Source: an uncultured Candidatus Saccharibacteria bacterium (GTDB lineage Bacteria > Patescibacteriota > Dojkabacteria > B142 > JAFGMG01). From it: 64,000 bases of DNA. The translations under genes were made by a program, and so were the position numbers. How positions within the stretch are numbered: the first letter of the stretch is position 1; each line of letters starts with the position of its first letter. The notes under the pieces were generated by a model that did no database searches, had not been told where the DNA came from, and was given only the letters and a program-made list of their open reading frames with translations. This document shows, piece after piece, positions 8,091-51,562 of this stretch. The stretch is from assembly GCA_964391325.1 (NCBI GenBank), contig CAYMJM010000003.1:3211-67210 (forward strand). Reading direction: 5' to 3'.

Positions 8091-8168
8091 AATGATATTA
8101 TTTATTGAAAAACTTGACCTCCTACTTTAACAAGAAGGGGTGCTAAAGTAAATTATTATATTGTCTAT

Positions 8169-8966: not shown

Positions 8967-9041
8967 GGGTCGGTAGCTCAATGGTAGAGCAGTGGCCTTT
9001 TAAGCCATTGGTTGGGGGTTCGAGCCCCCCCCGACTCACCA
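8967..9041 (+). tRNA. tRNA-Lys (anticodon TTT), CCA encoded
   Basis: Manually folded cloverleaf: acceptor GGGTCGG/CCGACTC, D-arm GCTC..GAGC, anticodon stem GTGGC/GCCAT with loop CTTTTAA, T-arm GGGGG-TTCGAGC-CCCCC, discriminator A plus CCA. Confidence 0.9.
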
Positions 9042-9198
9042 AATTCAACAGGACGAACATATCTTCTGCTTACTATATATAGCTAGCAATAGTAGAACAT
9101 CCTTCATGTAATTATGGGCCATTTTTGTAGCACATAAGTGCATTAAGAGATAGAATGGAATAATTTCCCTTCATCAAAATTTCTGGTAGTATCTTTGT

Positions 9199-9852: not shown

Positions 9853-9919
9853 CAGGAGAAGCAATAGATGGAGAAAAAGAGAGTAGAAAGTAGCTTAATT
9901 TAAATATTATAAACAAATC

Positions 9920-10510
9920 ATGAAGCTATTATTTGTACGGCATGGAGAATCAGTAGATGATCTTACTGATCAGTATGGTGGTTGGGGAGACTTTGACTTA
10001 ACCCCCAAAGGAAAAGTGCAGATACAGGAAACAGCAGAGAAGATAAAGGAGTTGGGCATTTCGTTTGATAAAGTACTGACTTCTCCTTTATTAAGAGCTT
10101 GGCAATCAGGAATGGTTATTGCAAATACACTTTCTATCCCGCTTGAAATTTTTCTTTATGCAAAGGAAAAAAATGGAAATGGACTCTTATCAGGTATGAA
10201 TAGAGAAGAAGCTAGAGAGGACTATCCTGAGCTGGTAAATGCTTTGGAACAAGGTTATGTATATGGCGCAGAGCCACAAGAGATGTTTATCGAACGCGTT
10301 AAATTTTCTGTTTCAGTGCTGTTGGAAAAACAGGCAAAAGCCTTAATAGTTGTAACACATGGAGGATACATGGGTGCTCTATTTAAAGAAATACTACATT
10401 TAGAATATCAGAAGACTCATGATGGAGGATTTATTTTATTGGAAGGGGATCATACTGAGAGACTGAAAATTAACACAATAGATGGAATTGATTATAAAGG
10501 CCAGATCTAG
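9920..10510 (+). CDS. Histidine phosphatase family (phosphoglycerate mutase-like) protein
   Basis: N-terminal RHGES catalytic motif; 196 aa. Confidence 0.8.
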   Translation: MKLLFVRHGESVDDLTDQYGGWGDFDLTPKGKVQIQETAEKIKELGISFDKVLTSPLLRAWQSGMVIANTLSIPLEIFLYAKEKNGNGLLSGMNREEAREDYPELVNALEQGYVYGAEPQEMFIERVKFSVSVLLEKQAKALIVVTHGGYMGALFKEILHLEYQKTHDGGFILLEGDHTERLKINTIDGIDYKGQI

Positions 10511-11142
10511 GCTAATTGTAACAGATCCCGAAAGTCAGTAAAAAAATAGTCTGCTCTGAGACTTTTTACTACTTCGTCGATATATAGTTTCTGATTAACT
10601 TCAGGGTAGAATAAAGCTGTTGCTACCCCTGTATTCTTGCCTGCTAAAATATCTTTTTCTGAATCACCAATCATAATAGTTTCTTCAGGATGCGCAGCAA
10701 TTTCTCTCATGGCCTTTTCCAGAGGTTCTGGGTCTGGTTTGAATCTGGTGACATCATCGCCACATACTACAGTATCAAATAGATCCTCAAGTTTATTTAT
10801 TCCTAATGCCGGCTTTACCTCTGTACTGTAACTAGTAGATACAATAGCTAATTTTTTTTCCTTAGATTTTAAATCTTCCAGAGTTTCCTTTACATTCGGA
10901 TGCAGTGATACAGATTGCAAACTTGTAGAAACTCTTGGCATCAATTCTACATAAAATTCTTCACCATCCAGCCCATGCTTTTGTGGCCCCTCATAGCCAC
11001 CTCCAAAAAAATCACTAACAATCTGGTCTGAAGTTAGTAGAATATTCTTTTCTTTTAATAATAAATCATAAGCTCTCAGCCATAGAGATAGTGTATCTGC
11101 TAAGCATCCATCCCAGTCAAAAAGAAAGTATTGATATTTCAT
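10507..11142 (-). CDS. HAD-superfamily hydrolase (subfamily IA)
   Basis: Motif I FDWDGCLADT, C-terminal IMIGDSEKDILAG motif; 211 aa. Confidence 0.85.
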   Translation of the reverse strand: MKYQYFLFDWDGCLADTLSLWLRAYDLLLKEKNILLTSDQIVSDFFGGGYEGPQKHGLDGEEFYVELMPRVSTSLQSVSLHPNVKETLEDLKSKEKKLAIVSTSYSTEVKPALGINKLEDLFDTVVCGDDVTRFKPDPEPLEKAMREIAAHPEETIMIGDSEKDILAGKNTGVATALFYPEVNQKLYIDEVVKSLRADYFFTDFRDLLQLA

Positions 11143-11355
11143 AGGCGTGGTTCCAAATTATCCTACGATTATAGCTTAAGGCAATCACATTGTCCATGTG
11201 AGTTTACTATACATAACTTTTACTGTAGAATACTATCTGTCTATTTTTATATTTTTATTAAAGTGGAAAATAGCATAACTTCTTCAGATGACGAGCCTCC
11301 GCATTCGCGGTTAAGTGTAATTTCCCCAAAGTCTCAATACCAAACAGTCAAATTT

Positions 11356-12294
11356 TTGAAAACTCAAAAGTATCGGAGGAGTAACGTAGCTGACTTAGAA
11401 ATATATGTAGAACATGATATTACAAGGGCGGAAAGTTTATGGAATTTGTTCAGCCCGAAAAATTCTCTTTTTGATCTGTGGAGCTTTAGGTTGGCATTTT
11501 GGCAGGCTTATCAGCACCTACCTTATTTCGTGGTTGCGAAAGATAAAAAGATAAATATTGGCGTAATCCCTCTATGGTATGAACGGGATACCAAAAAATA
11601 TACTTGGTTTGGAAGCTATTGGCATGAGGATAACAATTTATGGATCACAAGCCCAAAATATATTAGACCAGTATTAGAGCATATACCAAAAGGTACTATT
11701 TTAAACTCTATCCTCCCTTTTTTGTATAGAAGTAAATTACTAGGCTTTGTTCCTGATGAGCCTAAATATGTTATTGATGTATATAAGTTTAGGTCGATCG
11801 AAGAGTATTTCTTGGCATTGCCGAAGAGGAATCGCGATAAATTGAAAGCTGATTATAAGAGGATAAATAAGCTATCGCCAAAACTAATTATCAATCGATG
11901 GAGTGATTTTGGTACTTTGATCAAATTGAGTCAACAAAGACTGGTAAGTATTGGGGAGATTCCTGACACATATGATAAAAGGAGATTATGTACATTTAGA
12001 AATATTATAAAAAATTCAGGAGAGCTGCAGGAGTATGAAGTTAAATTGTTGACTATAGAAATTGAAGGACAGATAGCAGCTGTTGATTTAATTTGTGTAT
12101 ACAATAACAGATATTATTCGATCAGGGGAGGAAACGACATAAAAAATTTCCCAGGTGTCGGTAATTATATACACCTTATGGAAATTGAAGATGCAATTAA
12201 GTTGGGTAAAGAAAAGGTCGATTTTCTTGCTACAGACTGTAACTGGAAACATAAGTGGACCAAACCAATGGCTCTTTATAAGTACGTAAGATAG
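11356..12294 (+). CDS. GNAT-fold Acetyltransf_6 / FemAB-CelD-like protein (start uncertain)
   Basis: C-terminal VDFLATDCNWKHKW resembles the FDFGRGDEPYKxxW motif of CelD/BioF2-like GNAT proteins. The track ORF begins at a TTG (11131) overlapping the upstream gene; no in-frame ATG in the first 300 nt; in-frame TTG at 11356 or GTG at 11263 are the candidates. Confidence 0.55.
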   Translation: MKTQKYRRSNVADLEIYVEHDITRAESLWNLFSPKNSLFDLWSFRLAFWQAYQHLPYFVVAKDKKINIGVIPLWYERDTKKYTWFGSYWHEDNNLWITSPKYIRPVLEHIPKGTILNSILPFLYRSKLLGFVPDEPKYVIDVYKFRSIEEYFLALPKRNRDKLKADYKRINKLSPKLIINRWSDFGTLIKLSQQRLVSIGEIPDTYDKRRLCTFRNIIKNSGELQEYEVKLLTIEIEGQIAAVDLICVYNNRYYSIRGGNDIKNFPGVGNYIHLMEIEDAIKLGKEKVDFLATDCNWKHKWTKPMALYKYVR

Positions 12295-12365
12295 GATAAG
12301 AATGCAAATTTGTTTGTATCTTGTCATAAAAATAATATAATAGCACTGCTGTTAGAGTATATTTA

Positions 12366-13511
12366 ATGTTCCTATTCTTTTTTGGACGCGATCAGGTTCT
12401 CTCGAAACTTGAGTTGACCATGGTTTTTAAAAAAGAAGGTGTTTTATTTGAGAAAGTTTATGAGGAAGAAAAATTTGTAATCATAGATTTTCCACGAATA
12501 CCAGATTTTGAGAAATTAATTTCCCAATTAGGCGGCACAGTGAGAATTGCAAAGGTATACTATGGAGCAGAAAAATTATCCGAGGAATTTGTAGACAAGC
12601 TGGATTTTTACTTCCCAAAAAATTTTAATTATGCGGTTGAGGGGATTAATTTGACTGTAGATGAAGTAAATGAAGTGGAAGGATATATTAAAAAAGCTAT
12701 TAGGCAGTATAAGTCTAAGGGTGTACAGAAGCATGCTACTCTCAGTATAGTAGTCCCCAGCAACTATTTCTCTTGGAAACTTGAAGAGGGTTTTGAGCTA
12801 TTTGTCCTGAAGATCAAAAATAAATACTTTTTTGCCCAGACACTGGAGTGTACCAATCCCAGACAATATGAATATAAAGACAATAAACGCCCTGTCCAAA
12901 AGCTCACCAGAGGCACGTCTTTTCGCCTGGCCCAGATGATGGTGAATTGCCTTGACCTGGGAAAAGGAAGAACCCTAGTAGATCCCTTTTGTGGAATTGG
13001 CACATTTCTTATAGAAGGTATGATAGCGGGATATAATGTTATAGGTATCGATAACGAGGAGGAAATGATACAAGCCTCTCTACGTAATATTGAGTGGGCA
13101 AGAAAAGAGTTTGGTTTAAGTACCTCCTATAAACTATTCACACAGAATGCGCAGGAAGCACAATTTGAAGCAGATGGATGTGTCTTTGAGCCTTTTATGG
13201 GACCGTTCATGACTAAGCTGCCAAATAAGCAAAGAGCCATTAAAGTAATGCAAAGACTAGAAGAACTTTACTTGGAGGTATTTGAGAATTTAAACAGATC
13301 TCTGAAAAAATTTGCACCTGTAGTATGCGTCCTCCCGTACTTGGAAACGCAGGATGGCGATATTATTCAATTATCTTCTAGATTTTTCAAAGGAATCAAA
13401 TTTGATATAGCTTCAATGTATGAGCATTTTCAGATAAACAATCCGATTGACTATGATACGCCTGCTGGATCGAGGATTAGAAGGAGGATATATCTTTTTA
13501 AAAAACAGTAG
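12366..13511 (+). CDS. THUMP-like tRNA (guanine-N2)-methyltransferase, Trm11/TrmN family
   Basis: SAM-MTase motif I LVDPFCGIGTFLIEG preceded by LTRGTSFRLAQMMVNC as in Trm11/TrmN; 381 aa. Confidence 0.7.
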   Translation: MFLFFFGRDQVLSKLELTMVFKKEGVLFEKVYEEEKFVIIDFPRIPDFEKLISQLGGTVRIAKVYYGAEKLSEEFVDKLDFYFPKNFNYAVEGINLTVDEVNEVEGYIKKAIRQYKSKGVQKHATLSIVVPSNYFSWKLEEGFELFVLKIKNKYFFAQTLECTNPRQYEYKDNKRPVQKLTRGTSFRLAQMMVNCLDLGKGRTLVDPFCGIGTFLIEGMIAGYNVIGIDNEEEMIQASLRNIEWARKEFGLSTSYKLFTQNAQEAQFEADGCVFEPFMGPFMTKLPNKQRAIKVMQRLEELYLEVFENLNRSLKKFAPVVCVLPYLETQDGDIIQLSSRFFKGIKFDIASMYEHFQINNPIDYDTPAGSRIRRRIYLFKKQ

Positions 13512-13512
13512 A

Positions 13513-14841
13513 ATGAGAACTTTGTATGATGAATATCGAGAAAAGCTTGCAGATTTTGTGAAGATTTCCAGTATTTCGATGGATAAAAAATACGAGGAAG
13601 AGCTAGAAGCGGCAGCTGAGTGGATTGAAGAGCTGCTGGATAACAAAGGATTATCAGTTGACGTGGTTGAGGGATATGGCAATCCAATTATAATTGCGGA
13701 TTATCAGGTGAGTAATTCTGCGGATACTTATTTGATATATGGACATTACGATGTTCAGCCAGCCAGCCAAGAGGCTGGCTGGCTGGATAATCCCTTTAAG
13801 CTAACAGAGTCTCAAGATAGACTGATTGCAAGGGGGGTAGTTGATAACAAGGGGCAAATTTTATTATACCTGACAGTGATTTTCGATTTGATAAAGCATG
13901 GAAAACTTAGGCACAATATTAAGTTTTTAATAGAGGGGGGAGAAGAGGTAGGATCCCCTAATATTGATAAATTTATTGAGAAGTATAAAGATACACTAAG
14001 CTCAGATTGTATTTTGATATCAGATGGGGCCATGCTAGGGGACCATCCAATCCTTGAAGTCGGATTTCGTGGTACCCTGAATGTGCACTTGATTTTGAAA
14101 ACTGCGGAAACCGATATGCACTCGGGAGAGTATGGTGGAGCTATCCCAAATGCTGCCCATGAACTTACTACGCTTCTATCAAAACTATATTTAAAAAATA
14201 GACAGATAAACATTCAAGGCTTTTATGATGATGTTCAATCAGTCAAGCCTCAATTTGCGCAACAGCAAAAAAGTGTAAGGTATAGCGTTGGAGAACTTAG
14301 AAAAAGTACGGGTGTGAAAGAAATTCTCACGGAGCCTAATCTAAGCATATTTTCCCAAACTGGAATGAGACCTTCTATAGAAGCTACTTCATTAAAATCC
14401 GGATATCTGGAAGAGGGTTTTAAAAATGCTATCCCTTCTCGTGCTGATGCGAAACTGAATATTAGATTGGTGCCCGCACAAAAACCTGAAAGAGTAGTAA
14501 CACTTTTGAAAAGGTTTATAGAGACAAAGTTACCTTCCTATGTTGAGTATCAGCTTCTCTCAACTGAATCTGATCATAATGAGCCCATAGTCATTAATAT
14601 TGATAATGATTACGCAAAAAAAGCAAAAAGGCTACTAAAAGAAGTTTATAAAAATCAAGTAATAGAGCACTATGTAGGAGGAACACTGCCTATCGTGAAA
14701 TATTTTCAGGATCTTTTGAAAATTCCGCAACTGTCAATTCCTCTTGCGAACCAGGACTGCCGTATGCATGGAGTAAATGAAAATTTTGAGATCAAGAAGA
14801 TTATAAAGGGTCTGGAATTTATCAAGCAATTTTTAATATAA
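13513..14841 (+). CDS. M20-family metallopeptidase (dipeptidase/desuccinylase-like)
   Basis: GHYDVQP and GVVDNKG metal-ligand motifs; start moved to ATG 13513 immediately after the upstream stop (the track start is a TTG inside the previous gene). Confidence 0.85.
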   Translation: MRTLYDEYREKLADFVKISSISMDKKYEEELEAAAEWIEELLDNKGLSVDVVEGYGNPIIIADYQVSNSADTYLIYGHYDVQPASQEAGWLDNPFKLTESQDRLIARGVVDNKGQILLYLTVIFDLIKHGKLRHNIKFLIEGGEEVGSPNIDKFIEKYKDTLSSDCILISDGAMLGDHPILEVGFRGTLNVHLILKTAETDMHSGEYGGAIPNAAHELTTLLSKLYLKNRQINIQGFYDDVQSVKPQFAQQQKSVRYSVGELRKSTGVKEILTEPNLSIFSQTGMRPSIEATSLKSGYLEEGFKNAIPSRADAKLNIRLVPAQKPERVVTLLKRFIETKLPSYVEYQLLSTESDHNEPIVINIDNDYAKKAKRLLKEVYKNQVIEHYVGGTLPIVKYFQDLLKIPQLSIPLANQDCRMHGVNENFEIKKIIKGLEFIKQFLI

Positions 14842-14895
14842 ATGCAATAAAAACATAAAAAAGTAGTTATTAGTTTACTTGGTTACATTCATAAA

Positions 14896-15078
14896 ATGAA
14901 TACAGAGTATTTTTGGTTTATTGCTTCAGGCATTTTCTGCCTTTTTGCAATTATTATTTTCCTTAGTGGAATTTATCTTTATCGAAAAGATCACAAATCC
15001 GTTTCAATTATTGCGATCTTGCTTTCTCTTCTTTTGACCTGTGCTTGCTCAACTTTTGTTACCGCTTTGTTAGTTTGA
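14896..15078 (+). CDS. Small two-TM membrane protein (hypothetical)
   Basis: 60 aa, two hydrophobic helices; weak support. Confidence 0.3.
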   Translation: MNTEYFWFIASGIFCLFAIIIFLSGIYLYRKDHKSVSIIAILLSLLLTCACSTFVTALLV

Positions 15079-15468
15079 ACCTTCTGCTTCTATAATGGAC
15101 AGTATTATCTCGCGTTTTCTGGGACCATCAAGCTCAACTACGATTACTCTCTGCCACATCCCTAATATTAATTTCCCCTCGTCAAAAGGCAGTAGTAGTT
15201 GCGGACCAATGATACTTGACATGATATGATCTGGCACATGATCTGGATTATGAGGATGGCGGTAGTTTAGCTTTGGTACCATCTCCACAAATGCATCAAG
15301 CATATCTAGATCTGTACCGGGATCAAGATCCGCTGTAGTTAAAGCAGCTGTTGTATGTAGTACAAGAAGATTACAGAGACCGCCAGTAGATGGAAGCTCT
15401 TGCTCTATAAGCTTAGTTATATCAATAATTTGTTTATTTTGCTGTGTGTTTATAATAATTTTCTTCAC
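15070..15468 (-). CDS. YjbQ/UPF0047 family protein (secondary thiamine-phosphate synthase-like)
   Basis: LHTTAALT, DPG, HPHNPDHVPDHI..GMWQRV motifs characteristic of YjbQ; 132 aa; overlaps ogg by 4 nt. Confidence 0.85.
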   Translation of the reverse strand: MKKIIINTQQNKQIIDITKLIEQELPSTGGLCNLLVLHTTAALTTADLDPGTDLDMLDAFVEMVPKLNYRHPHNPDHVPDHIMSSIIGPQLLLPFDEGKLILGMWQRVIVVELDGPRKREIILSIIEAEGSN

Positions 15469-16298
15469 TTTATGTTGTGTTTTCTAACGTATTCAAATAG
15501 AAACTGTCCCGCGTATGCGGCATAACCGTTGAAGTAATTCTTATACCATTTCCGCATTTGCTCGTAATTGAGTCTAGAGGAAAGGTTGTATAGCTTTATT
15601 AGAAATCTCTGCCCCCAGATGTCTAGAGGGGTGACGTTCGAAAAGCCAAGTGAATAAGTAAGTATACAATCAGCTACTTTCGGTCCTACACCTTCTAACT
15701 GTAGCAGATTCCCGCGTGCCTGTTCCTCGTCCATACTCTTAATTGTTTCGTTTATTTGGGCTTGGAGCAAGGAGTTCGCACTCCTTTTTATGTACTCAGC
15801 CCTATATCCTAGTTTTGCTTGTCTTAGTGTTTCTATAGGGGCGTGAGCAATTTCCTCTGTTGCTGGATATAAATAAAATCTGTGGAAATTTATCTTTATA
15901 TCTTTTCCTAAGTTCTTAGAAAGTAGTTTTCTACTTTGGCGAATAAGTTTGAGATTCCTATTAGTAGAGCTGATGAAATTTAGAACAGTTTGTTCAAAAG
16001 GCTGCCTAAGAATTTTAATATTACCAAATTCCTGAATAGCTTTAGTCACATGCAAATCTCTTCTGATCTCAGCTATAATTGTTTCATATGCTTCATCTAA
16101 AGCAAAGTATTTTTTTATCAATTGATAATTATCTTTCTGAGGGTAGGTTTGCCATAGAATACCAGTCTGTATAGGCTTGATCCTGATAATAGCTTCCTGC
16201 GTACTTGCAAAGTACTCATCATCAACCGGCTCCCAGTTGAAGTCTTGTCCGCCTAGTAAAGTTATAGGAAGGTTGTAGTTGAATTCCAATTCATTCAT
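15465..16298 (-). CDS. ogg: 8-oxoguanine DNA glycosylase/AP lyase (Ogg family, HhH-GPD)
   Basis: HhH-GPD element LQLEGVGPKVADCILTYSLG...PLDIW with catalytic Lys and Asp; 277 aa. Confidence 0.8.
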   Translation of the reverse strand: MNELEFNYNLPITLLGGQDFNWEPVDDEYFASTQEAIIRIKPIQTGILWQTYPQKDNYQLIKKYFALDEAYETIIAEIRRDLHVTKAIQEFGNIKILRQPFEQTVLNFISSTNRNLKLIRQSRKLLSKNLGKDIKINFHRFYLYPATEEIAHAPIETLRQAKLGYRAEYIKRSANSLLQAQINETIKSMDEEQARGNLLQLEGVGPKVADCILTYSLGFSNVTPLDIWGQRFLIKLYNLSSRLNYEQMRKWYKNYFNGYAAYAGQFLFEYVRKHNIK

Positions 16299-16364
16299 AC
16301 AAATAATTCTAACATGTCATCAATATAGTTTTGCAGAAAGTAGAGAATTGAATTATCATTAGTT

Positions 16365-17654
16365 ATGGAATTGATAGTAGATTTACACATACACTCACAC
16401 TTCTCTCGGGCAACCAGTAAAGAGATGAACATAGCATCTCTTTATAGGTGGGGTAAGATAAAGGGAATTAACGTCATTGGTACCGGAGATTTTACACATC
16501 CACTTTGGTATAAAGAGCTTATGGATAAGCTGGAGCCTGCCGAGCCAGGATTATTTAGACTTAAAGAGGAGTATGCCAAAGAGCAGGATGACCAACTTCC
16601 TGAGATTTTAAAAGGGAAGTTAATCAGGTTTATCCTCACAGTTGAAATTAGTAATATTTACTCGAAAAACAATCAAGTACGTAAACTCCATAATGTACTT
16701 ATAGCTCCAAGTTTCCAAGCTGTTGCAGAAATAAATGATAGGCTTTCCAAAATCGGAAACTTGAAAGCGGATGGGAGACCAATTCTAGGGCTCGATAGTA
16801 AAGAACTGCTTCGGATTTCTATGGAAACCAATCCTGATAACTTTTTTATTCCAGCTCACATATGGACACCCTGGTTTTCTATGTTTGGCTCAAAATCAGG
16901 CTTCAATGCTATCGAAGAAGCCTTCGAAGAATTATCTCCAGCAATAAAAGCAGTTGAAACTGGTTTATCTTCTGATCCATACATGAACTGGAGAATCAAT
17001 GAGTTGCAAAACGTGACTTTGGTTTCTAATTCAGATGCTCACTCTCCTTGGAAGCTGGGAAGGGAGGCTAATACACTAGATTGTAAGTTGTCTTATTATG
17101 AAATTATTAATGCAATCAAAAAAGGAGATGAACGCTTTATAGGAACAATTGAGTTTTACCCTGAGGAAGGAAAATACCATTATGATGGACATAGAGTCTG
17201 TAAATTTCGCTGTAACCCAGAGAAAACAAAAGATTTAAAAGGAATATGTCCCAAATGCGGGAAGCCTTTGGTCGTTGGTGTGCAGAGTAGGGTATCTGAA
17301 TTATCGGACAATCCGTTTGATTACAGACCTAAAACATATAAAAAGGTTGAGTATATCATTCCACTTCCAGAGATTCTTTCCGAATTACGAGGAGTCAAGA
17401 ATCCACAATCCAAAACAATTAATAGTATGTATGAAGAAATGTATTCGAAATTAGGAGACGAGTTTAGTATACTCCGTATAGTTCCAATAGAAGAAATTCG
17501 TACTGCTGGATTCAGTGCTATCGCAGAAGGGATAAGCAGGATGCGACAAGGTAAAGTAACAGTTGAACCGGGCTATGATGGTATTTATGGAGTTATCAGA
17601 GTTTTTGAAGAAGGAGGAACAGAAAGAATAACAGGACAGCAAAAATTACTTTAA
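16365..17654 (+). CDS. Endonuclease Q-like protein (PHP domain plus C-terminal Cys4 zinc finger)
   Basis: N-terminal DLHIHSHFSRATS PHP motif, NSDAHSP, and C-x3-C-x11-C-x2-C finger (CKFRCNPEKTKDLKGICPKCG); 429 aa matches EndoQ architecture; divergent from ogg-yjbQ. Confidence 0.65.
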   Translation: MELIVDLHIHSHFSRATSKEMNIASLYRWGKIKGINVIGTGDFTHPLWYKELMDKLEPAEPGLFRLKEEYAKEQDDQLPEILKGKLIRFILTVEISNIYSKNNQVRKLHNVLIAPSFQAVAEINDRLSKIGNLKADGRPILGLDSKELLRISMETNPDNFFIPAHIWTPWFSMFGSKSGFNAIEEAFEELSPAIKAVETGLSSDPYMNWRINELQNVTLVSNSDAHSPWKLGREANTLDCKLSYYEIINAIKKGDERFIGTIEFYPEEGKYHYDGHRVCKFRCNPEKTKDLKGICPKCGKPLVVGVQSRVSELSDNPFDYRPKTYKKVEYIIPLPEILSELRGVKNPQSKTINSMYEEMYSKLGDEFSILRIVPIEEIRTAGFSAIAEGISRMRQGKVTVEPGYDGIYGVIRVFEEGGTERITGQQKLL

Positions 17655-43622: not shown

Positions 43623-44162
43623 ATGTTCAAGACTATTTCGCATAAGAAAATTTATCAGAATAGATGGCTTACTTTCTATGCAGACAGCATATCTTTTCCT
43701 AATGGTGCAAAAGGAGTTTATGGCTACGTTGAGAGAAATAGTGGAGTGTCTATTGCAGTCTTGGACAAAAACTATAGCATCCTTCTTATAGAACAATACA
43801 GGTATCCTACTAAAAAGTGTCATATAGAAATTCCTGCTGGTTCTATAATTAAAGGAGAAACTCCAGAACAAGCATGTTTACGTGAGTTAGCTGAAGAAGC
43901 GGGGATTTACGAAATAGAGGAATTGGAATTCTTACAAACATACTATCCTTTGAGCGCACACAGTACTGAAACCCAGAGTCTATTTATGGCTAGGGTTCAG
44001 AGGTTTTCAGAATTTAAGGGAACTGAATTTGATGAAGATATCCAAAGCTACCTAGTCACACCTATTGATAAAGCTTTGAAAATGATAGATATAGGAAAGA
44101 TAGATGATGCAATAACCTCTAATGCAATTCAGCTAGTACATAGAAAGTTGAATAAAAAATAA
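43623..44162 (+). CDS. NUDIX hydrolase
   Basis: Nudix box GSIIKGETPEQACLRELAEEAGI (Gx5Ex7REUxEExGU); 179 aa. Confidence 0.85.
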   Translation: MFKTISHKKIYQNRWLTFYADSISFPNGAKGVYGYVERNSGVSIAVLDKNYSILLIEQYRYPTKKCHIEIPAGSIIKGETPEQACLRELAEEAGIYEIEELEFLQTYYPLSAHSTETQSLFMARVQRFSEFKGTEFDEDIQSYLVTPIDKALKMIDIGKIDDAITSNAIQLVHRKLNKK

Positions 44163-44189
44163 ATTTATCATAAAATAAATTGGCTTAGA

Positions 44190-44399
44190 AAAGGAATAGT
44201 AGACATATACAGAGAGCTGTTATGTTCTGAGAGACAGGAAATGTCGAACCTACCTTGGAGCTATCCTGGGAAACTAGGACGCATATCAGCGTTAAGATAT
44301 AATGAGTCTGTTTTAACAGTAAATTAAGGTGGTACCACGAGAAAGCTCGGCCTTATACACTTCATTTTTTGATATGATGTATAAGGCCGAGCTTTTTTC
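44190..44399 (+). promoter_or_regulatory. T-box riboswitch-like leader of proS (candidate Pro specifier CCU; antiterminator/terminator switch)
   Basis: T-box consensus AAATTAAGGTGGTACCACGAG at 44321-44341 (vs AATTAGGGTGGNACCGCG). Antiterminator fold: helix A1 AAGG/CCTT, 7-nt bulge TGGTACC, helix A2 CGAG-AAAG-CTCG. Overlapping 17-bp terminator hairpin 44343-44359/44378-44394 followed by TTTTTT. Candidate specifier CCT-A at 44249-44252. Confidence 0.7.
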
Positions 44400-44427
44400 A
44401 TATAATTTAACTTTTAAATGAGGATCT

Positions 44428-45663
44428 ATGAAATACTCACAGCTATTTACCAGAACAGATAAGACTGCTAAAGAGTATGACACTGTTAATGCAACCTTGC
44501 TGGTTAAAGCGGGTTTTGTTAACCAACTTATGGCTGGAGCTTACACGATTTTACCCTTAGGCCTACGGGTATTAAGAAAAATTGAGAACGTAATCAGGAC
44601 CGAAATGAATGAGGCTGGTGGACAGGAAATTCTGATGCCAGCCTTACATCCAGCAGAAAATTGGAAGACCACAGGTGCTTGGGAGAGTGTAGATGTATTA
44701 TTTAAAATCAAGAGTAGAACTGGAAAGGAATACGCTTTGGGTCAAAGCGAAGAGGAGGTAGTTGCTCCCTTGGTGAAGCAGTATGTAAAGTCCTACAAAG
44801 ACCTTCCAGTGGCTGTGTATCAAATACAAAATAAATTTAGAGACGAACTTCGGGCAAAATCGGGTATCTTGAGAGGGCGTGAGTTTGGTATGAAGGATAT
44901 GTATTCATTTCATGAATCTCAACAAGATTTCCTGCGATTTTATGAAGAAATTAAAGAGGCATACAAAAGGATATTTAAGAAGCTTGGTTTAGTAGCTAAG
45001 GTAACTGAAGCTTCTGGGGGTGATTTTTCACAAAAAATTTCTTATGAATTTATGGTACTGACCGATGTAGGTGAAGACGACATTTTATATTGTCCTGAGT
45101 GTGACTTCTGTATAAATCAAGAAATAGCTAGCGATTTAAGGGACTGTAAGAAATGTGCAGCTGAGCTTATAAAAGCTAAAGCAGCAGAAGTGGGGAATGT
45201 TTTCGACTTAGGGCAAAAGTATCCTAAAGATTTCGATTTTACTTATACTGACAGGGATGGGGCAGAAAAATATCCATTTATGGGTTGCTATGGGATTGGC
45301 ACTACACGTGTAATGGGAGTAATTGTGGAGAAGTTTCATGATGACAAAGGTATCATCTGGCCGGAGCAGGTAGCACCTTTTAATGTTCATCTTATATCTT
45401 TGGGAGAGGGTACTGAAATTACCAAGGTTACTCAAAAAATTAATCGGGCTTTTCTTGATGCTGGGATAGAGGTTTTGTGGGACGATCGACAAGATATTAC
45501 TGCTGGAGAGAAATTTGTAGATGCAGACTTAGTAGGTATCCCACATCGTATTGTGGTGAGTGAAAGATCTTTGGAAAAGGGGGGAGTAGAGTATAAAAGC
45601 AGAAACGAGCAGACATCTCACATTTTCCCTAAAGAGGAATTGCTGGCTTTTCTTTTAAAGTAA
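44428..45663 (+). CDS. proS: Proline--tRNA ligase lacking the INS editing domain
   Basis: Class II motifs (KFRDELRAKSGILRGREF motif 2; GCYGIGTTR motif 3), C-terminal anticodon-binding domain; GAGGA SD 5 nt upstream; 411 aa, too short to contain the bacterial insertion editing domain. Confidence 0.9.
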   Translation: MKYSQLFTRTDKTAKEYDTVNATLLVKAGFVNQLMAGAYTILPLGLRVLRKIENVIRTEMNEAGGQEILMPALHPAENWKTTGAWESVDVLFKIKSRTGKEYALGQSEEEVVAPLVKQYVKSYKDLPVAVYQIQNKFRDELRAKSGILRGREFGMKDMYSFHESQQDFLRFYEEIKEAYKRIFKKLGLVAKVTEASGGDFSQKISYEFMVLTDVGEDDILYCPECDFCINQEIASDLRDCKKCAAELIKAKAAEVGNVFDLGQKYPKDFDFTYTDRDGAEKYPFMGCYGIGTTRVMGVIVEKFHDDKGIIWPEQVAPFNVHLISLGEGTEITKVTQKINRAFLDAGIEVLWDDRQDITAGEKFVDADLVGIPHRIVVSERSLEKGGVEYKSRNEQTSHIFPKEELLAFLLK

Positions 45664-45689
45664 CTGTTATTTAGTGTAATTTTTATATA

Positions 45690-45851
45690 TAATATTATCA
45701 AGAGATTGAGCTGTGCAGTGAAAGGTTCAAGTATTCTTGTGACGTATAAAAGCATTTTAATTAAAAAAGTAAAAATAGAGGTGGCACCGACCTTAATTTA
45801 AGTATTTAAGGGCCCTCCAGATCATTGATCTTGGGGGTCTTTTTGTTTTTT
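45690..45851 (+). promoter_or_regulatory. T-box riboswitch-like leader of aspS-ybaK fusion gene (candidate Asp specifier GAC)
   Basis: AAAAATAGAGGTGGCACCGACC at 45771-45792 matches the T-box core (GGTGGNACCG). Antiterminator fold: GAGG/CCTC with 7-nt bulge TGGCACC (45782-45788), A2 helix GACCTTAA/TTAAGGGC. Terminator hairpin 45810-45839 plus T-run. AGAGA and AGTGA stem-I-like elements and GAC-G at 45741-45744. Confidence 0.6.
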
Positions 45852-45874: not shown

Positions 45875-47671
45875 ATGAAACGTACAATTTCTAATGAGTT
45901 AAAAAATAAAGTTGGAAAAAAGGTTTTAGTAAAAGGATGGCTGCATTCTCTAAGAATGTTAGGAGCTGTCAATTTTCTGATGTTAAGAGATCGAGGGGGA
46001 TTTACTCAGGTGGTGATTGAATCTAGAGATGAGCTAAATAAAGTTAAGGATTTGCAGCCCGGCTCTGTTCTTGCTATAGAAGCAGAGGTACAGAAATCTC
46101 TAAAGACATCATTGGGGGTAGAATTAGTATCTCCCTCGATTGTCATCGAGGTCCCCGTTAAGTATCCTTTACCACTTGATATTTCCAAAAAAGAGTTAAG
46201 CGCCAATTTGGATACTATTTTGGACTATAGATCTTTGGTATTGAGAAATGAAAAACAAATGGCAATATTTAAAATCCAAGCATCTATAATTGAAGCCTTT
46301 GCTCACAGTATGAAGGCTCAGGGATTCACGAGGTTTGATTCGCCTGTTTTGATGGGATCTCCTTCTGAGAGCGGAGCTGATGTTTTTGAAGTAAAGTATT
46401 TTGGCGACAAGGCTTATTTAGCTCAAAGCCCTCAAATATATAAGCAGATTATGGTAGGAGTCTTTGAAAGAGTATACACAATAGCCAAGGTTTTTCGGGC
46501 AGAAAAGCACAATACGTCGAGACACTTGATGGAGATCACTCAGCTCGATGGAGAAATGGGGTTTATAGAAAATTACGATGAGGTATTAGAAGTGGTTGAA
46601 AAGGTCGTAAGAGATATATTTACATACCTGGAAATTAACAATCCCATAGAGATAGAAGTGCTTAGCATTCAATTGCCTCAGTTACCGGAAGGAGGGTTTC
46701 CTAGAATTAAAGTAAAAGAAGCTTTGACCTTGATAGAGCAAAGAACTGGCAAATCAGCCAACAGAGAAGAGTTGGATGTTGACCCCGAGGACGAAAGGGA
46801 GATTACAGAATGGGCTAAAGAAGAACACAATTCTGAGTTTGTTTGGCTGCTAAATTTTAAATCCAATAAGAATTTTTATACATTAGACAATCCAGAAGAC
46901 AAAGGTGAATCTTTTAGTTATGACCTGCTATGTAGGGGGTTGGAATGGCTATCTGGGACTCATAGAATCCACAACTATAGTACACTACTGGAAAGACTAA
47001 AAAATCAAGGGTTGCAGGAGGAGCATTACAGCCATTACTTACAGGCTTTCAAATATGGTATGCCTTCTGAAGCGGGTTTTTCTTTTGGACTGGAGCGGGT
47101 AACACAACAGATTGTAGGGCTAGACAATATACGTGAAGCTACGCTTTTTCCTTCTGATCAGAAAAGAATTGCAGGGGCTAGAATTAAGAGAAAAGTAGTA
47201 CATGGAGAGGAGGAAGTTATCCGAGCTATTAAAACAATGTTTGAGGAAAGCAATAAGGAGTATAGATTTTTTGAACATGAAGCAACTATAACTTCTCAGG
47301 ATGCTGCTCGAATTCGTGGAACGAATCCAGATGAGGGGGTAAAAGCTTTGATTCTCAGATCCAAAAAAGATGGTAGAAACATAATGCTATGCTTACAGGG
47401 CAGTAAGAAAATAGATATGGGTAAATTGAAAAATTTATTGGGAGAATCCTTTACCTTTGAAGAGGCAGATAAGATAAAGCAAAGGTATGGTTTAGAGATA
47501 GGAGGAATCCCTCCTTTTGGCAATATTTTGGGTTTGGAGACCTACTTTGATTCTTCTATATTAAATACAGAGTATGTTTCTTTTAATTGTGGAAGCAGAT
47601 ATAAGTCAATACGTACAAAGACAAATAATTTAGCTAAACTTGTGTCACCTCAAATAGTTGATGTAGTGTAG
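45875..47671 (+). CDS. aspS: Aspartate--tRNA ligase (archaeal/eukaryal-type class IIb core) fused to a C-terminal YbaK/ProX-like aminoacyl-tRNA deacylase domain
   Basis: OB anticodon-binding N-terminus, motif 2 FRAEKHNTSRHLMEITQLDGEM, motif 3 GFSFGLERV, canonical class IIb C-terminus FPSDQKR at ~aa 440. A further ~150 aa follows with the YbaK pattern (VKALILRSKKDGRNIMLCLQG...GLEIGGIPPFGNILGLETYFD...VSFNCGS). Confidence 0.8.
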   Translation: MKRTISNELKNKVGKKVLVKGWLHSLRMLGAVNFLMLRDRGGFTQVVIESRDELNKVKDLQPGSVLAIEAEVQKSLKTSLGVELVSPSIVIEVPVKYPLPLDISKKELSANLDTILDYRSLVLRNEKQMAIFKIQASIIEAFAHSMKAQGFTRFDSPVLMGSPSESGADVFEVKYFGDKAYLAQSPQIYKQIMVGVFERVYTIAKVFRAEKHNTSRHLMEITQLDGEMGFIENYDEVLEVVEKVVRDIFTYLEINNPIEIEVLSIQLPQLPEGGFPRIKVKEALTLIEQRTGKSANREELDVDPEDEREITEWAKEEHNSEFVWLLNFKSNKNFYTLDNPEDKGESFSYDLLCRGLEWLSGTHRIHNYSTLLERLKNQGLQEEHYSHYLQAFKYGMPSEAGFSFGLERVTQQIVGLDNIREATLFPSDQKRIAGARIKRKVVHGEEEVIRAIKTMFEESNKEYRFFEHEATITSQDAARIRGTNPDEGVKALILRSKKDGRNIMLCLQGSKKIDMGKLKNLLGESFTFEEADKIKQRYGLEIGGIPPFGNILGLETYFDSSILNTEYVSFNCGSRYKSIRTKTNNLAKLVSPQIVDVV

Positions 47672-47945: not shown

Positions 47946-48377
47946 ATGTTAATAGGAGAATATAAAACTAAATTACAAGAAAAAAATAGGACAGCTATAC
48001 CAAAAAGATTTAGGGATGAACTGGAGGGACAACTAATAATAACTAGAGGATATGAAGGTTGTTTGATAGTTTTAGATAAAAGCAGATGGGAGAAGTTAAT
48101 AAGATTAATAGAGACTCGACCTTTAACAAATCAGGATGTTCGAAATACAAAAAGGTTTTTGGTAGGAGGGGCTGCGGAAATAGAATTTGATAAGCAAGGA
48201 AGATTTGTCTTACCGGATGTATTAGTAGAGTATGCGCACTTTGAAAATGAGTTAGTGTTCGTGGGAATAGAAAACTGGCTTGAGGTATGGGACCTGGAAA
48301 CGTGGCAAACTAAGATTGAGCAGATCACTGAGTCTGCAGCAGATATAGCTGATAGATTAAGTAGCATAGCATTATGA
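47946..48377 (+). CDS. mraZ: Transcriptional regulator MraZ
   Basis: Two tandem MraZ/SpoVT-AbrB-like repeats (IPKRFR...; LPDVL...); 143 aa; first gene of dcw-type cluster. Confidence 0.92.
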   Translation: MLIGEYKTKLQEKNRTAIPKRFRDELEGQLIITRGYEGCLIVLDKSRWEKLIRLIETRPLTNQDVRNTKRFLVGGAAEIEFDKQGRFVLPDVLVEYAHFENELVFVGIENWLEVWDLETWQTKIEQITESAADIADRLSSIAL

Positions 48378-49363
48378 ACAAAGTAACAAGGCACGTACCA
48401 GTTTTGCTAAAAGAAGTTCTTAGCACCATTTCTCCCGAGGCAGGAGGAGTGTATGTTGATGCTACCCTTGGTGGAGGAGGTCACTTTTTTTCTTTACTAA
48501 ATGCTATTCCCAAAAATACAAATCCAAGATCTGTATACATTGGTTTTGATCATGATGAGTCTGCAGTAAGGAGAATCATTAGGCAAATAGAAGTGGATTT
48601 CAAAGAGAGGTTTACTAATACTCGAGAGAATGTGTATGAGCTGACTACTCCAAGCAAGAGAGTTCTTCTAATAAACAAAAATTTTGAAACTTTAAGTGAA
48701 GAACTAGCTCTTAGTAAGATTTATAAAGTTGATGGGATTATCGCTGATTTAGGGACATCACAAGATCAGTTAGATGATTTGACAAGGGGATTCAGTTTTT
48801 TGGAGACGGGATCCTTGGATATGAGGATGGATAGTAAGTTGCAGATTAAGGCATCCGATTTATTAAAAATCTTGACACGACAGGAACTAATCAAGCTCTT
48901 TAATAATTTAGCTGACATAAAAGGGAAAGAAGGAGAATGGATTGTGGAGGAAATAATGAAAGCGAGAGAGCATGGAGACATTAAGACAACGGATGAATTG
49001 AAAAAAATAATTACCCGAGCTGTGCCTTTGAAAAGCGTTGGTTCGCGTACGAAAGGCATACGGAATAGACGTAACCTTGAGGCTAGAGTGTTTCAAGCTT
49101 TAAGAATTGCTGTTAATCATGAATTGGATTCATTACAGCAATTCCTGCCCCAAGCATTTGAAACACTCGAAGCCTTTGGTGTATTAGTGGTGATTTCTTT
49201 TCACTCTGGAGAGGACAGAATAGTGAAACACTATGTTAGATCTCTGGTAGAGCAGGAAGTAGCAGATTATGTCCATAAGTTAGTAAGACCAAGTATATCG
49301 GAGATCAAATATAATGCAAAAAGCTCTAGCGCAAGGCTTAGAGCTATCAGAAAAATTAAATAA
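48374..49363 (+). CDS. rsmH: 16S rRNA (cytosine1402-N4)-methyltransferase RsmH
   Basis: HVPVLLKEVL, DATLGGGGH SAM motif; 329 aa; ATGA overlap with mraZ. Confidence 0.92.
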   Translation: MNKVTRHVPVLLKEVLSTISPEAGGVYVDATLGGGGHFFSLLNAIPKNTNPRSVYIGFDHDESAVRRIIRQIEVDFKERFTNTRENVYELTTPSKRVLLINKNFETLSEELALSKIYKVDGIIADLGTSQDQLDDLTRGFSFLETGSLDMRMDSKLQIKASDLLKILTRQELIKLFNNLADIKGKEGEWIVEEIMKAREHGDIKTTDELKKIITRAVPLKSVGSRTKGIRNRRNLEARVFQALRIAVNHELDSLQQFLPQAFETLEAFGVLVVISFHSGEDRIVKHYVRSLVEQEVADYVHKLVRPSISEIKYNAKSSSARLRAIRKIK

Positions 49364-49415
49364 AGCACTTTTAACTATTATTCTGGTTGATTATGCAATC
49401 AGCCGTAATTGCACA

Positions 49416-49745
49416 ATGAATAGACAAACAAAAAACAGAGCACAATCTGATTATATCCAAAGACAAATTTTTATAATAGCGGCAGTTTTACTGGTTGTTT
49501 TTATAGTCGCACAATTCATAGTACTTGACTTAGCTGGTATTCATGGGCCTCAAATTACCAGGTTAAGACAGGAGCAAAACGAATTAAAAGTTTCTAATGA
49601 ATTAAAGAGAGCGAAAATAAATGAATTGAACACCAGCAATGATATTAAAAGCTACGCTTCCCAAGATTTAGGGTTGGTGTCAACCCCGGTAACTACTTTG
49701 AAAGTAAAAGAAGATAATGTAACCGCATCTATTAATGGTAACTAA
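49416..49745 (+). CDS. ftsL: FtsL-like cell division protein (septum formation initiator family)
   Basis: 110 aa: short basic N-terminus, single TM, coiled-coil (QEQNELKVSNELKRAKINELN); position between rsmH and ftsI; start moved to ATG 49416. Confidence 0.55.
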   Translation: MNRQTKNRAQSDYIQRQIFIIAAVLLVVFIVAQFIVLDLAGIHGPQITRLRQEQNELKVSNELKRAKINELNTSNDIKSYASQDLGLVSTPVTTLKVKEDNVTASINGN

Positions 49746-49789
49746 TTTAGACTGGAAGTTTTAGTGGTACAGTAATTTCAGCTATAGAT

Positions 49790-51562
49790 ATGAAAAGTTC
49801 TCTTGGTAAAGGAAAACTTAAAATATTATCCATAATATTCATAGTCTTCTTTTTGTTAAACTTGGGATTTTTGGTTAGATGGCAGGTTTTTAATCATGAG
49901 AAATTTGTTGCTTTGGCCAGAGAACGTATTATGGATAATAAGATACCTTCGATTAGAGGAGAAATTCTTGCTGCTGATGGTTCTTCTCTAGCTTACTCAG
50001 AGCCAAGATATAATGTGGTCGTATATAAGACTGAATTAGAATACGCTGAAGAGCATAGCAAACAGACTAGAGAAGAGTTTATTTCCAAAGTTGCTGGTGC
50101 TCTTGAAATAGAGAAAGAAGTATTGGAAGATAGAATTAATGTCGAAGGTAATTGGTTAGTTATAGAAAACAAAGTCTCTTATGAAGTAAAAGAACGCTTA
50201 TTGGAATTAAAAAGAGACAATGCTCCAGACAAGACATTGGACGGTATCAGATTAGAGTATACTTCTCAAAGAATTTATCCTGAAGGCGCTATGGCTTGCC
50301 ACGTTATCGGCTTCCTGGGAAAGAATGATCTAGGGGAAGATTTAGGAAGGGCTGGGTTGGAGCATTACTGGGAGGGATTACTAAAGGAGCAGGTTGGTTT
50401 TGATAATACTGAAGTAGACAGTTTCGGCAATATTATTGCCTTAGATAATGTCAATAATGTTGAAGCTAGAAGGGGAGCAACAATTTACACGACCATTGAT
50501 AAAAATCTACAGAGCATAGCTGATAGAGAAATACAAAAAGCAGTGGAAAAGTATAATGCAAAATCAGGAAGTGTAATAATTATGGATCCCAAAACAGGTA
50601 AAGTTATGGCACTATCTAATTACCCAAGCTTTAATCCCAATGAGTATCAAAAGGTACAAGATTCTATGTCGTTCAAGAATGTGGCAATTACGGATCCGGC
50701 AGAACTAGGTTCTGTAGGCAAGGCTTTTACTATGGCTGCAGCTTTAGACTTGGATAAGATTGAGCCAGATACAGTTGTGATTAAGGGACACAAGGGCTGC
50801 ACAACTGTAGAGGAGGCAGAGAGGGAGTGGGAAATCTGTACTTATGATAAAAAATCCCAGCCGGCGATGACAACGACACAAGCATTGGTTAAGTCTGATA
50901 ACCTAGCTCTCTATGAAATTTCCAAATTAATTGGACAACAAGATTTACAGGATTATTTACAAAGATTTGGTATTGGAACCCGGACAGATATTGATATCTC
51001 AGGGGAATCTAATGGTGTTTTAAAAGATGTGTCACAATGGACAAATGTTGATACAGCCACGTATTCATTTGGTCATGGTTATCAGATGACACAATTGCAG
51101 GCGATAACTGGGATAGCGGCAATTGCAAATGGAGGGGAGCTTGTCAGACCTTATATTGTATCAAAGGTTGAAGAATCTAATGGAGATACAAAAGATTATG
51201 GGCCGGTGGTTGTCAGACGAGTAATACGTCAAACTACAGCGGATAAGTTGACTAATATGTTGTATGAAGTTTATAAATCTAACATACCTGAGTATCAATA
51301 TAAAGATTTATCAAAATACAAAATAGCTATGAAATCCGGAACTGCAACCATCCCTTATAAAGACAGAGCGGGTTATTCAAAAGAGATAAATGCTTCTTAT
51401 ATTGGATTTGACGCTTCGGATAAGTCTACTTTTATAATGTTAGTAAAACTGGAAGAACCAAAAGCAGTGGAGAGACTCTCTTTTTATAGTGCGAGGGTTG
51501 TATGGCTTGACATTTTCATCCAGGTAAAAGATTATTTAGGAGTACCTGAAATCGGCGGTTAA
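49790..51562 (+). CDS. ftsI: Peptidoglycan D,D-transpeptidase (class B PBP, FtsI-like)
   Basis: N-terminal TM anchor, PBP dimerisation domain, transpeptidase motifs SVGK (SxxK), SDN, KSGT; 590 aa. Confidence 0.88.
   Translation: MKSSLGKGKLKILSIIFIVFFLLNLGFLVRWQVFNHEKFVALARERIMDNKIPSIRGEILAADGSSLAYSEPRYNVVVYKTELEYAEEHSKQTREEFISKVAGALEIEKEVLEDRINVEGNWLVIENKVSYEVKERLLELKRDNAPDKTLDGIRLEYTSQRIYPEGAMACHVIGFLGKNDLGEDLGRAGLEHYWEGLLKEQVGFDNTEVDSFGNIIALDNVNNVEARRGATIYTTIDKNLQSIADREIQKAVEKYNAKSGSVIIMDPKTGKVMALSNYPSFNPNEYQKVQDSMSFKNVAITDPAELGSVGKAFTMAAALDLDKIEPDTVVIKGHKGCTTVEEAEREWEICTYDKKSQPAMTTTQALVKSDNLALYEISKLIGQQDLQDYLQRFGIGTRTDIDISGESNGVLKDVSQWTNVDTATYSFGHGYQMTQLQAITGIAAIANGGELVRPYIVSKVEESNGDTKDYGPVVVRRVIRQTTADKLTNMLYEVYKSNIPEYQYKDLSKYKIAMKSGTATIPYKDRAGYSKEINASYIGFDASDKSTFIMLVKLEEPKAVERLSFYSARVVWLDIFIQVKDYLGVPEIGG

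Follow-up and report, generated by a model that had tools for sequence, protein, structure and literature searches.

T-box riboswitches are tRNA-responsive leaders with a well-known mechanism, and a survey published in 2013 recorded them in Firmicutes, Actinobacteria, Chloroflexi, Deinococcus-Thermus and Geobacter (PMC3766115). According to current structural models, the kink-turn (K-turn), the specifier loop and Stem II are needed to position and reinforce the contact between the specifier codon and the tRNA anticodon (PMC7583486). Naturally reduced members have been described, namely the glycine T-box of glyQS, which lacks Stem II and the IIA/B pseudoknot, its strong codon-anticodon pairing being the published rationale for lacking Stem II (PMC7583486), and the actinobacterial translational T-boxes with an intermediate or 'ultrashort' Stem I, e.g., that of Mycobacterium ileS (PMC7583486; PMC11297988). 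In this work, we analyzed two leaders located upstream of adjacent aminoacyl-tRNA synthetase genes, proS (leader 1) and an aspS-ybaK fusion (leader 2), in a 64 kb stretch of contig CAYMJM010000003.1, hereafter the window. An initial annotation had described both as T-box riboswitch-like, and their elements, their gene-matched codons and the comparative evidence are consistent with tRNA-responsive attenuators of the T-box type. We consider it probable that both leaders are transcription-attenuating T-box riboswitches, with leader 2 being a minimal variant.

Leader 1 matches the canonical transcriptional T-box (RF00230; e.g., Bacillus subtilis tyrS) in full, its one addition being a further member from an unusual phylum. 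Leader 2 shares with the canonical form the UGGNACC bulge between helices A1 and A2, the mutually exclusive terminator with its U tract, a gene-matched specifier codon followed by a purine, and an AG motif with a distal-type loop; however, it lacks the 5' strand of Stem I, the K-turn, the closed S-turn specifier loop, Stem II and the pseudoknot, and its AG motif is a predicted 5'-terminal tail, whereas in canonical T-boxes it forms a bulge. The glyQS leader is likewise a reduced transcriptional T-box (Stem I, linker, Stem III and discriminator) of similar overall size, but its Stem I is complete, K-turn and specifier loop included, and its specificity is for Gly (GGC), whereas leader 2 is predicted to be Asp-specific (GAC) and is also without the proximal Stem I half, so that the two have just the lack of Stem II in common. 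The actinobacterial ultrashort T-boxes resemble leader 2 in being a natural Stem I truncation and a lineage-specific variant outside Firmicutes. In these, the distal elbow-binding motif is lost, the specifier loop is kept, function depends on Stem II, and control is exerted by sequestration of the ribosome-binding site; leader 2 displays the opposite arrangement, with the distal motif kept, the specifier loop and Stem II lost, and an intrinsic terminator. Leader 2 has a T-box discriminator domain; it does not reach the family threshold, and several of the defining structural elements are missing from it.

Elements of the two leaders

The features of both leaders are given below; the term mini-leader refers to the reduced leaders of the leader 2 type found in related loci.
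44148-44176, + strand: promoter-like site TTGAAT, 17 nt, TAAAAT, upstream of leader 1 (consensus scan, 9/12 matches), with putative promoter function
44177-44357, + strand: leader 1, canonical T-box leader (RF00230)
44339-44398, + strand: terminator of leader 1, a hairpin with U tract that overlaps the antiterminator in its 3' strands (folding)
45664-45693, + strand: predicted leader 2 promoter, with -35-like CTGTTA at 45664-69, an 18 nt spacer and the -10 box TATAAT at 45688-93 (read from the sequence)
45701-45705, + strand: AG motif AGAGA, corresponding to the AG bulge of Stem I (AGNRA co-located in 10/10 aspS mini-leaders)
45706-45730, + strand: distal-type hairpin, helix UUGAGC/GUUCAA, with the 13-nt loop UGUGCAGUGAAAG (covariation, descriptor)
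45739-45744, + strand: GU-GAC-G, with the proposed specifier GAC (45741-43, Asp) in a single-stranded context and then a purine (GUGAY in 10/10)
45745-45777, + strand: A-rich linker with a possible weak A-U hairpin (Stem III counterpart) and a purine string before A1 (read from the sequence)
45778-45817, + strand: leader 2 antiterminator, A1 45778-81/45814-17, bulge UGGCACC 45782-88, A2 45789-96/45806-13 (pairing, covariation)
45808-45851, + strand: leader 2 terminator hairpin (45808-45842) and U tract (45840-45851), exclusive with the antiterminator (folding)

Both leaders contain AGGUGGNACC within an A1/bulge/A2 antiterminator that overlaps a far more stable terminator, followed by a U tract. 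The T-box cores are thus present where the initial annotation had placed them: the pattern RGGTGGNACCR has exactly two sites in the window (+ strand, 44327 and 45779), each lying ~95-100 nt 5' of a synthetase start codon (proS, 44428; aspS, 45875), while dinucleotide shuffles gave a mean of 0.15 matches and at least two matches in 0/100 shuffles. The antiterminator of leader 1 is composed of A1 AAGG/CCUU, the bulge UGGUACC (44330-36) and A2 ACGAG/CUCGG, and that of leader 2 of A1 GAGG/CCUC, the bulge UGGCACC (45782-88) and A2 GACCUUAA/UUAAGGGC. The variable bulge residues, U at 44333 and C at 45785, are those previously annotated, and they fit A73 and G73, the bases known for bacterial tRNA-Pro and tRNA-Asp, respectively. 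The proposed competition with a terminator was likewise borne out, as the 3' strands of each antiterminator double as the 5' strand of a long terminator hairpin. Minimum free energies (MFEs), calculated for segments in which the exact A1/bulge/A2 pairing was not always reproduced, were -5.8 kcal/mol for the antiterminator segment alone vs -37.5 kcal/mol with the terminator included in leader 1, and -7.8 vs -24.3 kcal/mol in leader 2.

By its alignment to the family model, leader 1 is an ordinary canonical proline T-box and a member of RF00230. Its match spans all 219 model positions, with 97.4 bits and an E of 3.5e-20 against a gathering score of 93, and the promoter-like site stops one base 5' of the start of this match. 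In the alignment, AGAGA (44211-15) occupies the AG bulge of Stem I, and the specifier loop contains GAA-CCU-A (44246-52), where CCU (Pro, 44249-51) has A as its 3' neighbor; Stem II, IIA/B, Stem III and the T-box are also taken in. Family membership is hence indicated by the score, by a gene-matched specifier with its purine, and by a UGGNACC antiterminator exclusive with the terminator. The orthologous proS leader of the closest relative (L095) scored 92.4 bits, half a bit below the gathering score, with the specifier GAA-CCC-G, a synonymous Pro codon.

Leader 2 extends over ~150 nt from its predicted start to the end of the U tract. The predicted transcript begins with its AGAGA, or right beside it, and leader 1 has the counterpart AGAGA at 44211-15. 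The loop of the following hairpin, in which AGUGAAAG is situated, ends in UG(N1-3)AG, as does the distal loop of leader 1 (AGAGA-GCUGU...CUGAGAG-ACAG); this conserved combination of AGNRA and a covarying hairpin with a loop ending UG..AG resembles the distal end of leader 1 and is a candidate counterpart of the AG bulge and distal loop that make up the elbow-binding interdigitated T-loop motif, although a leave-out model missed the copy in the window. Leader 2 further displays a UGGNACC antiterminator, a competing terminator with its U tract, and a gene-matched specifier. Conversely, it has no Stem I 5' strand, since only 7 nt separate the -10 box from the AG motif; no basal K-turn (GA motif) or S-turn specifier loop is present, no Stem I enclosing the specifier can be drawn, and no conserved pairing encloses it. 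Neither Stem II nor the IIA/B pseudoknot was found, a 33-nt A-rich linker lying between the specifier and A1, and RF00230 aligns neither of the two. The predicted promoter was not listed by the consensus promoter scan, its -35 element matching just 3/6 positions.

These observations divide what had been claimed about Stem I. The candidate specifiers CCU-A (44249-52) and GAC-G (45741-44) hold, the relatives L095 (proS leader, CCC) and L096 (aspS leader, GAU) showing synonymous codons, and so do the AGAGA/AGUGA motifs; the Stem I-like surroundings proposed for both were recovered in leader 1, which aligned in full, but in leader 2 only as the distal tip, with an unenclosed specifier. The initial annotation had itself counted a sub-threshold RF00230 score and the inability to fold a Stem I with a specifier loop as evidence against a T-box, and because leader 2 displays both, comparative evidence was sought. 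Judged by sequence comparison, leader 2 is a T-box on the grounds of its discriminator domain and of this comparative evidence, and not by the canonical definition.

Two other Rfam candidates for leader 2 were rejected. The trpB ncRNA motif (RF04312) matched 45780-45849 with 24.5 bits, and also L095 at 9043-9127 with 25.5 bits (gathering score 59), matches most likely to be explained by the terminator hairpin with its U tract; a PyrR match of 19.6 bits follows the terminator hairpin. No other Rfam family fits leader 2.

Conservation of the reduced plan in related loci

Contigs encoding related AspRS-YbaK fusions were fetched and are referred to by L numbers. Ten aspS mini-leaders were identified, namely those of the window, L095, L096 (identical in L097), L098, L099, L100, L103, L104, L001 and L106. 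They are found in Dojkabacteria-like contigs, their AspRS proteins being 48-76% identical to that of the window and their upstream gene neighbors differing; the closest relative is L095 (AspRS 76% identical), with the same arrangement of a short proS and aspS-ybaK. A TATAAT -10 box located 7-9 nt before the AG motif was observed in 8/10 aspS leaders and in a proS mini-leader of L103, L104 and L001 having weaker -10 candidates only, and several mini-leaders also carry TTGnnn at 17-18 nt or a TGn extended -10. The AG motif varies among AGAGA, AGUGA, AGCGA and AGCAA, and it is followed by a hairpin with a helix of 4-6 bp and a loop of 11-15 nt ending in UG(N1-3)AG. The spacer from hairpin to specifier comprises 6-11 single-stranded nt, or 37-46 nt with an extra hairpin in L100 and L104. 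GUGAY is present in all ten leaders, with GAC in nine and GAU in one (L096), both Asp codons, and the following base is a purine in 9/10. The A-rich linker spans 30-75 nt among relatives, with a small hairpin in some of them, and that of L095, with AGUAAAAAUA before A1, resembles that of leader 2.

At the 3' end, the bulge is UGGCACC in 7/10 aspS leaders, CGGCACC in L100, and UGGUACC in L103 and L104; the variable residue is U in all three proS leaders. The discriminator regions with the terminator included have energies of -24 to -41 kcal/mol, and the antiterminator segments alone of -5 to -12 kcal/mol; an equivalent terminator and U tract was observed in all 9 relatives evaluated.

The same reduced plan was found before an archaeal-type proS (ProRS-C_1 domain) in L103 (minus strand, 16376-16760). 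Its 5' part consists of TATAAT, 8 nt, AGCAA, and the hairpin GCUCAA/UUGAGC with a loop ending in CUGAAAU; its 3' part comprises an inserted hairpin, AA-CCU-A, UUAGG-CGGUACC...CCUAA, and a terminator. As read from the sequences, the specifier-position triplet varies with the gene that it precedes, Asp codons standing before aspS and a Pro codon before proS, and this is the strongest argument for reading it as a specifier.

Covariation was assessed on a hand alignment of 9 leaders (N-padded, and unchanged by MAFFT), since the automatic MAFFT alignment misaligned the short leaders. Standard pairs were formed in 95.9% of the cells, vs 75% in shuffles, and 10/14 pairs displayed changes on both sides, a value reached in 0/500 shuffles. 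In the 5' hairpin, all six helix pairs covary by both-side changes; A1 and A2 pairs are kept at 97 and 92%, respectively, with compensatory changes in 4/8 pairs. Sliding the 3' partners by 1-3 columns lowered pairing to 15-57%.

Searches with models of the 5' module were also performed. A covariance model built from nine seeds (R1) found only its seeds in 1.24 Mb, the next best match having 21 bits (E 0.42), and it also detected the leader of L106, fetched afterwards and hence unseen, with 27 bits (E 1.9e-4). A descriptor written with knowledge of the module in the window (AGNRA, helix, loop ending UG..AG, 5-13 nt, GUGAY) had one site in the window (45701) and matched only aspS leaders in 1.2 Mb of loci, while simulated windows held 0.035 sites each. 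A leave-out model (R2), for which the window and L095 were set aside and the 7 more distant leaders used, recovered L095 with 19.7 bits (E 0.026).

The mini-leader is not universal in related loci, as no T-box was found upstream of aspS in L081, L101, L102 and L105, nor in the non-fusion relative L082. In L101 (NPID01000250.1), a run of N occupies ~9363-9830 upstream of aspS, and the absence is less certain there than in L102, L081 and L105. In L105, a 659 kb Dojkabacteria contig, a ~5 kb block is repeated twice in tandem (6789-11800 and 11868-16879), comprising HhH-GPD, a 551-aa protein, NUDIX and aspS-ybaK, with a T-box at neither aspS copy. A contig search with the fusion-protein alignment listed relatives of at most 48% identity, none labeled Dojkabacteria among the matches listed, most of these being labeled Chlamydiae, Saccharibacteria or Clostridia; a metagenome search with the single AspRS protein returned two close relatives only, with a T-box in neither.

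Proposed mechanism and rival explanations

By default, the nascent leader would fold into the strong terminator, and transcription would halt short of the synthetase gene. Uncharged cognate tRNA (tRNA-Pro for proS, read by CCU; tRNA-Asp for aspS, read by GAC) would pair through its anticodon with the specifier codon and through its free 3' NCCA end with UGGN of the 7-nt bulge, and its elbow would contact the AG motif and the distal loop; together, these contacts would stabilize the weak antiterminator and allow RNA polymerase to read into the gene. In canonical T-boxes, the distal tip of Stem I stacks on the tRNA elbow. In leader 2, the transcript would start at the AG motif itself, Stem I would be cut to this distal tip (the AG motif and the hairpin with its distal-type loop), and the specifier would be presented single-stranded 10 nt downstream of the hairpin. 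Further, the GU that precedes the Asp codon in every aspS mini-leader may form base pairs with tRNA-Asp at positions 37-38, lengthening the codon-anticodon helix to 5 bp, and could in this manner compensate for the missing scaffolding; the idea is based on the anticodon loop of E. coli tRNA-Asp. Beyond the window, we lean slightly towards the view that Dojkabacteria carry a distinct minimal class of transcriptional T-box, for Asp (aspS) and Pro (archaeal-type proS) at least, defined by an AG-motif 5' end, an elbow-binding 5' hairpin and a single-stranded specifier, with no K-turn, specifier loop, Stem II or pseudoknot.

Several results weigh against the reading of the leaders as T-box attenuators. 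Leader 2 obtained 10.1 bits with RF00230 (E 5.2) and missed the gathering score of 93, so that the threshold match sought for both leaders was obtained for leader 1 only; a search of a narrower stretch listed no match for leader 2, and none of the related mini-leaders reached the gathering score. The leader 2 transcription start is predicted from promoter consensus only, and longer read-through RNA over leader 2 must exist in the window, because no terminator separates the proS stop (45663) from it. Glycine T-boxes are the only ones in which Stem II is known to be dispensable (PMC7583486), and a functional Asp T-box without it would be unprecedented. The hand alignment was drawn around the proposed structure and is biased towards it. 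Model R2 missed the 5' module of the window itself, even with filters off, the AGAGA, 13-nt loop and U-rich spacer found here being unlike the AGCGA/AGCAA and A-rich pattern of the other leaders; because of this, the module is tied to the family mainly through L095 and the descriptor, with no independent statistical match. Among the aspS leaders, one has C and not a purine after GAC, and the variable bulge residue, C in 8/10, is U in the other two, where it could still wobble-pair with G73. Lastly, no Dojkabacteria tRNA-Pro or tRNA-Asp genes were found in the window or in 56 loci searched, the window holding genes for tRNA-Lys, tRNA-Cys and tRNA-Leu only.

One alternative is that leader 2 is a canonical T-box whose proximal Stem I was missed, the transcript starting further 5', e.g., by read-through from proS, and the TATAAT being merely transcribed. 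The lack of a terminator after proS, by which read-through RNA must exist, and a few A/U pairings that can be drawn between the TATAAT region and the post-specifier sequence (in L098 and the window) speak for it. We regard it as unlikely, however, in view of the comparison among relatives, in which the sequence upstream of the AG motif is unrelated save for TATAAT at 7-9 nt and -35-like or TGn elements, and the genes upstream of the leader vary from locus to locus. No conserved pairing partner for the linker or the specifier flanks was found in L095, L096 and L103, and RF00230, which models a full Stem I, gives leader 2 ~10 bits. In L098, moreover, a stem-loop and T run stand just before the promoter, as seen by eye (the terminator scan did not list them). 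For these reasons, i.e., a -10 box at a fixed short distance, unconserved sequence further 5', the L098 stem-loop and T run directly preceding the promoter, and the lack of conserved pairing around the specifier, the minimal-variant reading places the RNA start at or next to the AG motif.

Decay offers another explanation, in which tRNA sensing has been lost and only the promoter and the terminator matter, the latter as proS terminator or constitutive attenuator. It would agree with the reduced genomes of the candidate phyla radiation (CPR), with the several related lineages that have no T-box upstream of aspS (L081, L101, L102 and L105), and with the lack in leader 2 of most of Stem I and all of Stem II, held important in non-glycine T-boxes (PMC7583486). 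Nevertheless, compensatory or synonymous changes have preserved the UGGNACC bulge, A1/A2, the 5' hairpin and the Asp codon across lineages with AspRS proteins only 48-76% identical, and the same reduced plan with a Pro codon stands before a proS gene. Since unselected sequence would not retain those elements, decay is disfavored, and we consider it very unlikely. Chance matches in an AT-rich intergenic region that holds an intrinsic terminator would account for the lack of support from the Rfam T-box model and for the terminator-driven weak matches (trpB motif, 24.5 bits), but comparison with the relatives effectively refutes this possibility. By chance, a window would hold 0.15 core patterns and 0.035 sites of the 5' descriptor, whereas the core stands twice in this one, each time before a synthetase gene; moreover, nine other contigs carry the element at the orthologous position, with covariation. 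The sequences themselves show the elements, how these are conserved and covary, that the codons match the regulated genes, and how unequal the competing folds are in energy; the transcription start and the elbow contact are inferred, as are tRNA binding and the regulatory outcome, by analogy with established T-boxes.

If this architecture holds, leader 2 would be a natural non-glycine transcriptional T-box without K-turn, closed specifier loop and Stem II; the minimal set of contacts (elbow, anticodon and NCCA end) would then be smaller than in current models, and a compact scaffold of ~150 nt would be at hand for engineering.

Genomic context and distribution of aspS T-boxes

The two synthetase genes, whose annotated identities agree with Pfam and NCBIfam matches, are as follows.
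44428-45663, + strand: proS, bacterial-type prolyl-tRNA synthetase (ProRS), 411 aa, without INS editing domain (Pfam tRNA-synt_2b and HGTP_anticodon)
45875-47671, + strand: aspS-ybaK fusion, AspRS of the aspartate--tRNA(Asn) ligase type with a C-terminal tRNA_edit (YbaK-like) domain, 598 aa

ProRS matched TIGR00409 (NCBIfam) with 425.9 bits (cut-off 306.7), the match being split in two by the lack of the INS editing domain. The AspRS fusion matched tRNA_anti-codon, tRNA-synt_2 and tRNA_edit (residues 468-589) in Pfam and NF003483 in NCBIfam (460.7 bits, cut-off 353), whereas YbaK_EbsC, with 44 bits, was under its own cut-off. The nearest named homologues of AspRS belong to Candidatus Dojkabacteria, with identity of up to 66%, and the host is therefore, as far as protein similarity indicates, most probably a bacterium of the CPR/Patescibacteria and not a Firmicute relative. 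The initial annotation had considered these T-boxes informative for a lineage among Firmicutes and relatives, a claim that was not sustained; besides the Dojkabacteria homologues, T-boxes upstream of this type of aspS were also found in contigs labeled Chloroflexota, Terriglobales, Micromonosporaceae and others, and T-box presence does not assign the genome to Firmicutes. If the architecture of leader 2 holds, charging-responsive synthetase control would be placed in Dojkabacteria, outside the phyla of the 2013 survey (PMC3766115), and a literature search of incomplete coverage found no paper connecting T-boxes with CPR. Under the same condition, standard annotation probably overlooks part of the T-box regulation in CPR and other reduced genomes, since the curated Rfam model misses the mini-leaders completely (10 bits for leader 2).

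Among the T-boxes of other loci, only two reach the RF00230 gathering score. One of them, L018, is a canonical aspS T-box from a Chloroflexota metagenome-assembled genome (MAG) encoding the same archaeal-type AspRS family; it scored 117 bits, with full Stem I, Stem II and pseudoknot, and shares with leader 2 the bulge UGGCACC and GAC-G, here aligned as specifier. Its codon is preceded by GAAA, whereas the mini-leaders have the invariant GU. The Clostridia-labeled relatives (L036 at 313-558, L048, L049, L053, L061-L063, L071-L077 and L080) carry T-boxes with the bulge UGGUACC, and that of L036 scored 108.9 bits, most of the others not being reported at the gathering score. Because AAC (Asn) aligns at the L036 specifier position, these genes are probably regulated as asnS. 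In another four loci, L027 (~5949), L040 (~5904), L033 (~5938) and L047 (~5929), in contigs labeled Parachlamydia, uncultured bacterium, Terriglobales and Micromonosporaceae, the aspS start codon follows the T-box core after just 65-100 nt, and a U-tract terminator is not evident. Such T-boxes may act at the level of translation, something not expected of a MAG labeled Chlamydiae.

Regarding the neighboring genes, a NUDIX gene (43623-44162) stands before leader 1, and the region 3' of aspS (47946-51562) contains mraZ, Methyltransf_5 (rsmH-like), a small open reading frame and a penicillin-binding protein (PBP) transpeptidase, the start of a division/cell-wall cluster that is also conserved in L095, L097 and L098, with the PBP being assigned through the annotation of relatives. 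Both in the window (44428-45663 and 45875-47671) and in L095 (7709-10945), a ProRS without INS stands beside an AspRS with the C-terminal tRNA_edit/YbaK-like domain. This domain family is known to clear mischarged tRNA-Pro, and because the ProRS lacks INS while the adjacent AspRS bears such a domain, the fusion may supply the ProRS editing function in trans; L096 and L098 encode a full-length ProRS with INS, yet the fusion is kept. The full-length AspRS-tRNA_edit fusion is not confined to Dojkabacteria, as among the matches listed it was also found in L002-L015 (e.g., L002 at 6001-7782), in contigs labeled Chlamydiae, Rhabdochlamydia, Parachlamydiaceae, Verrucomicrobia and Legionellaceae, with proteins matching residues 1-594 at 40-45% identity.

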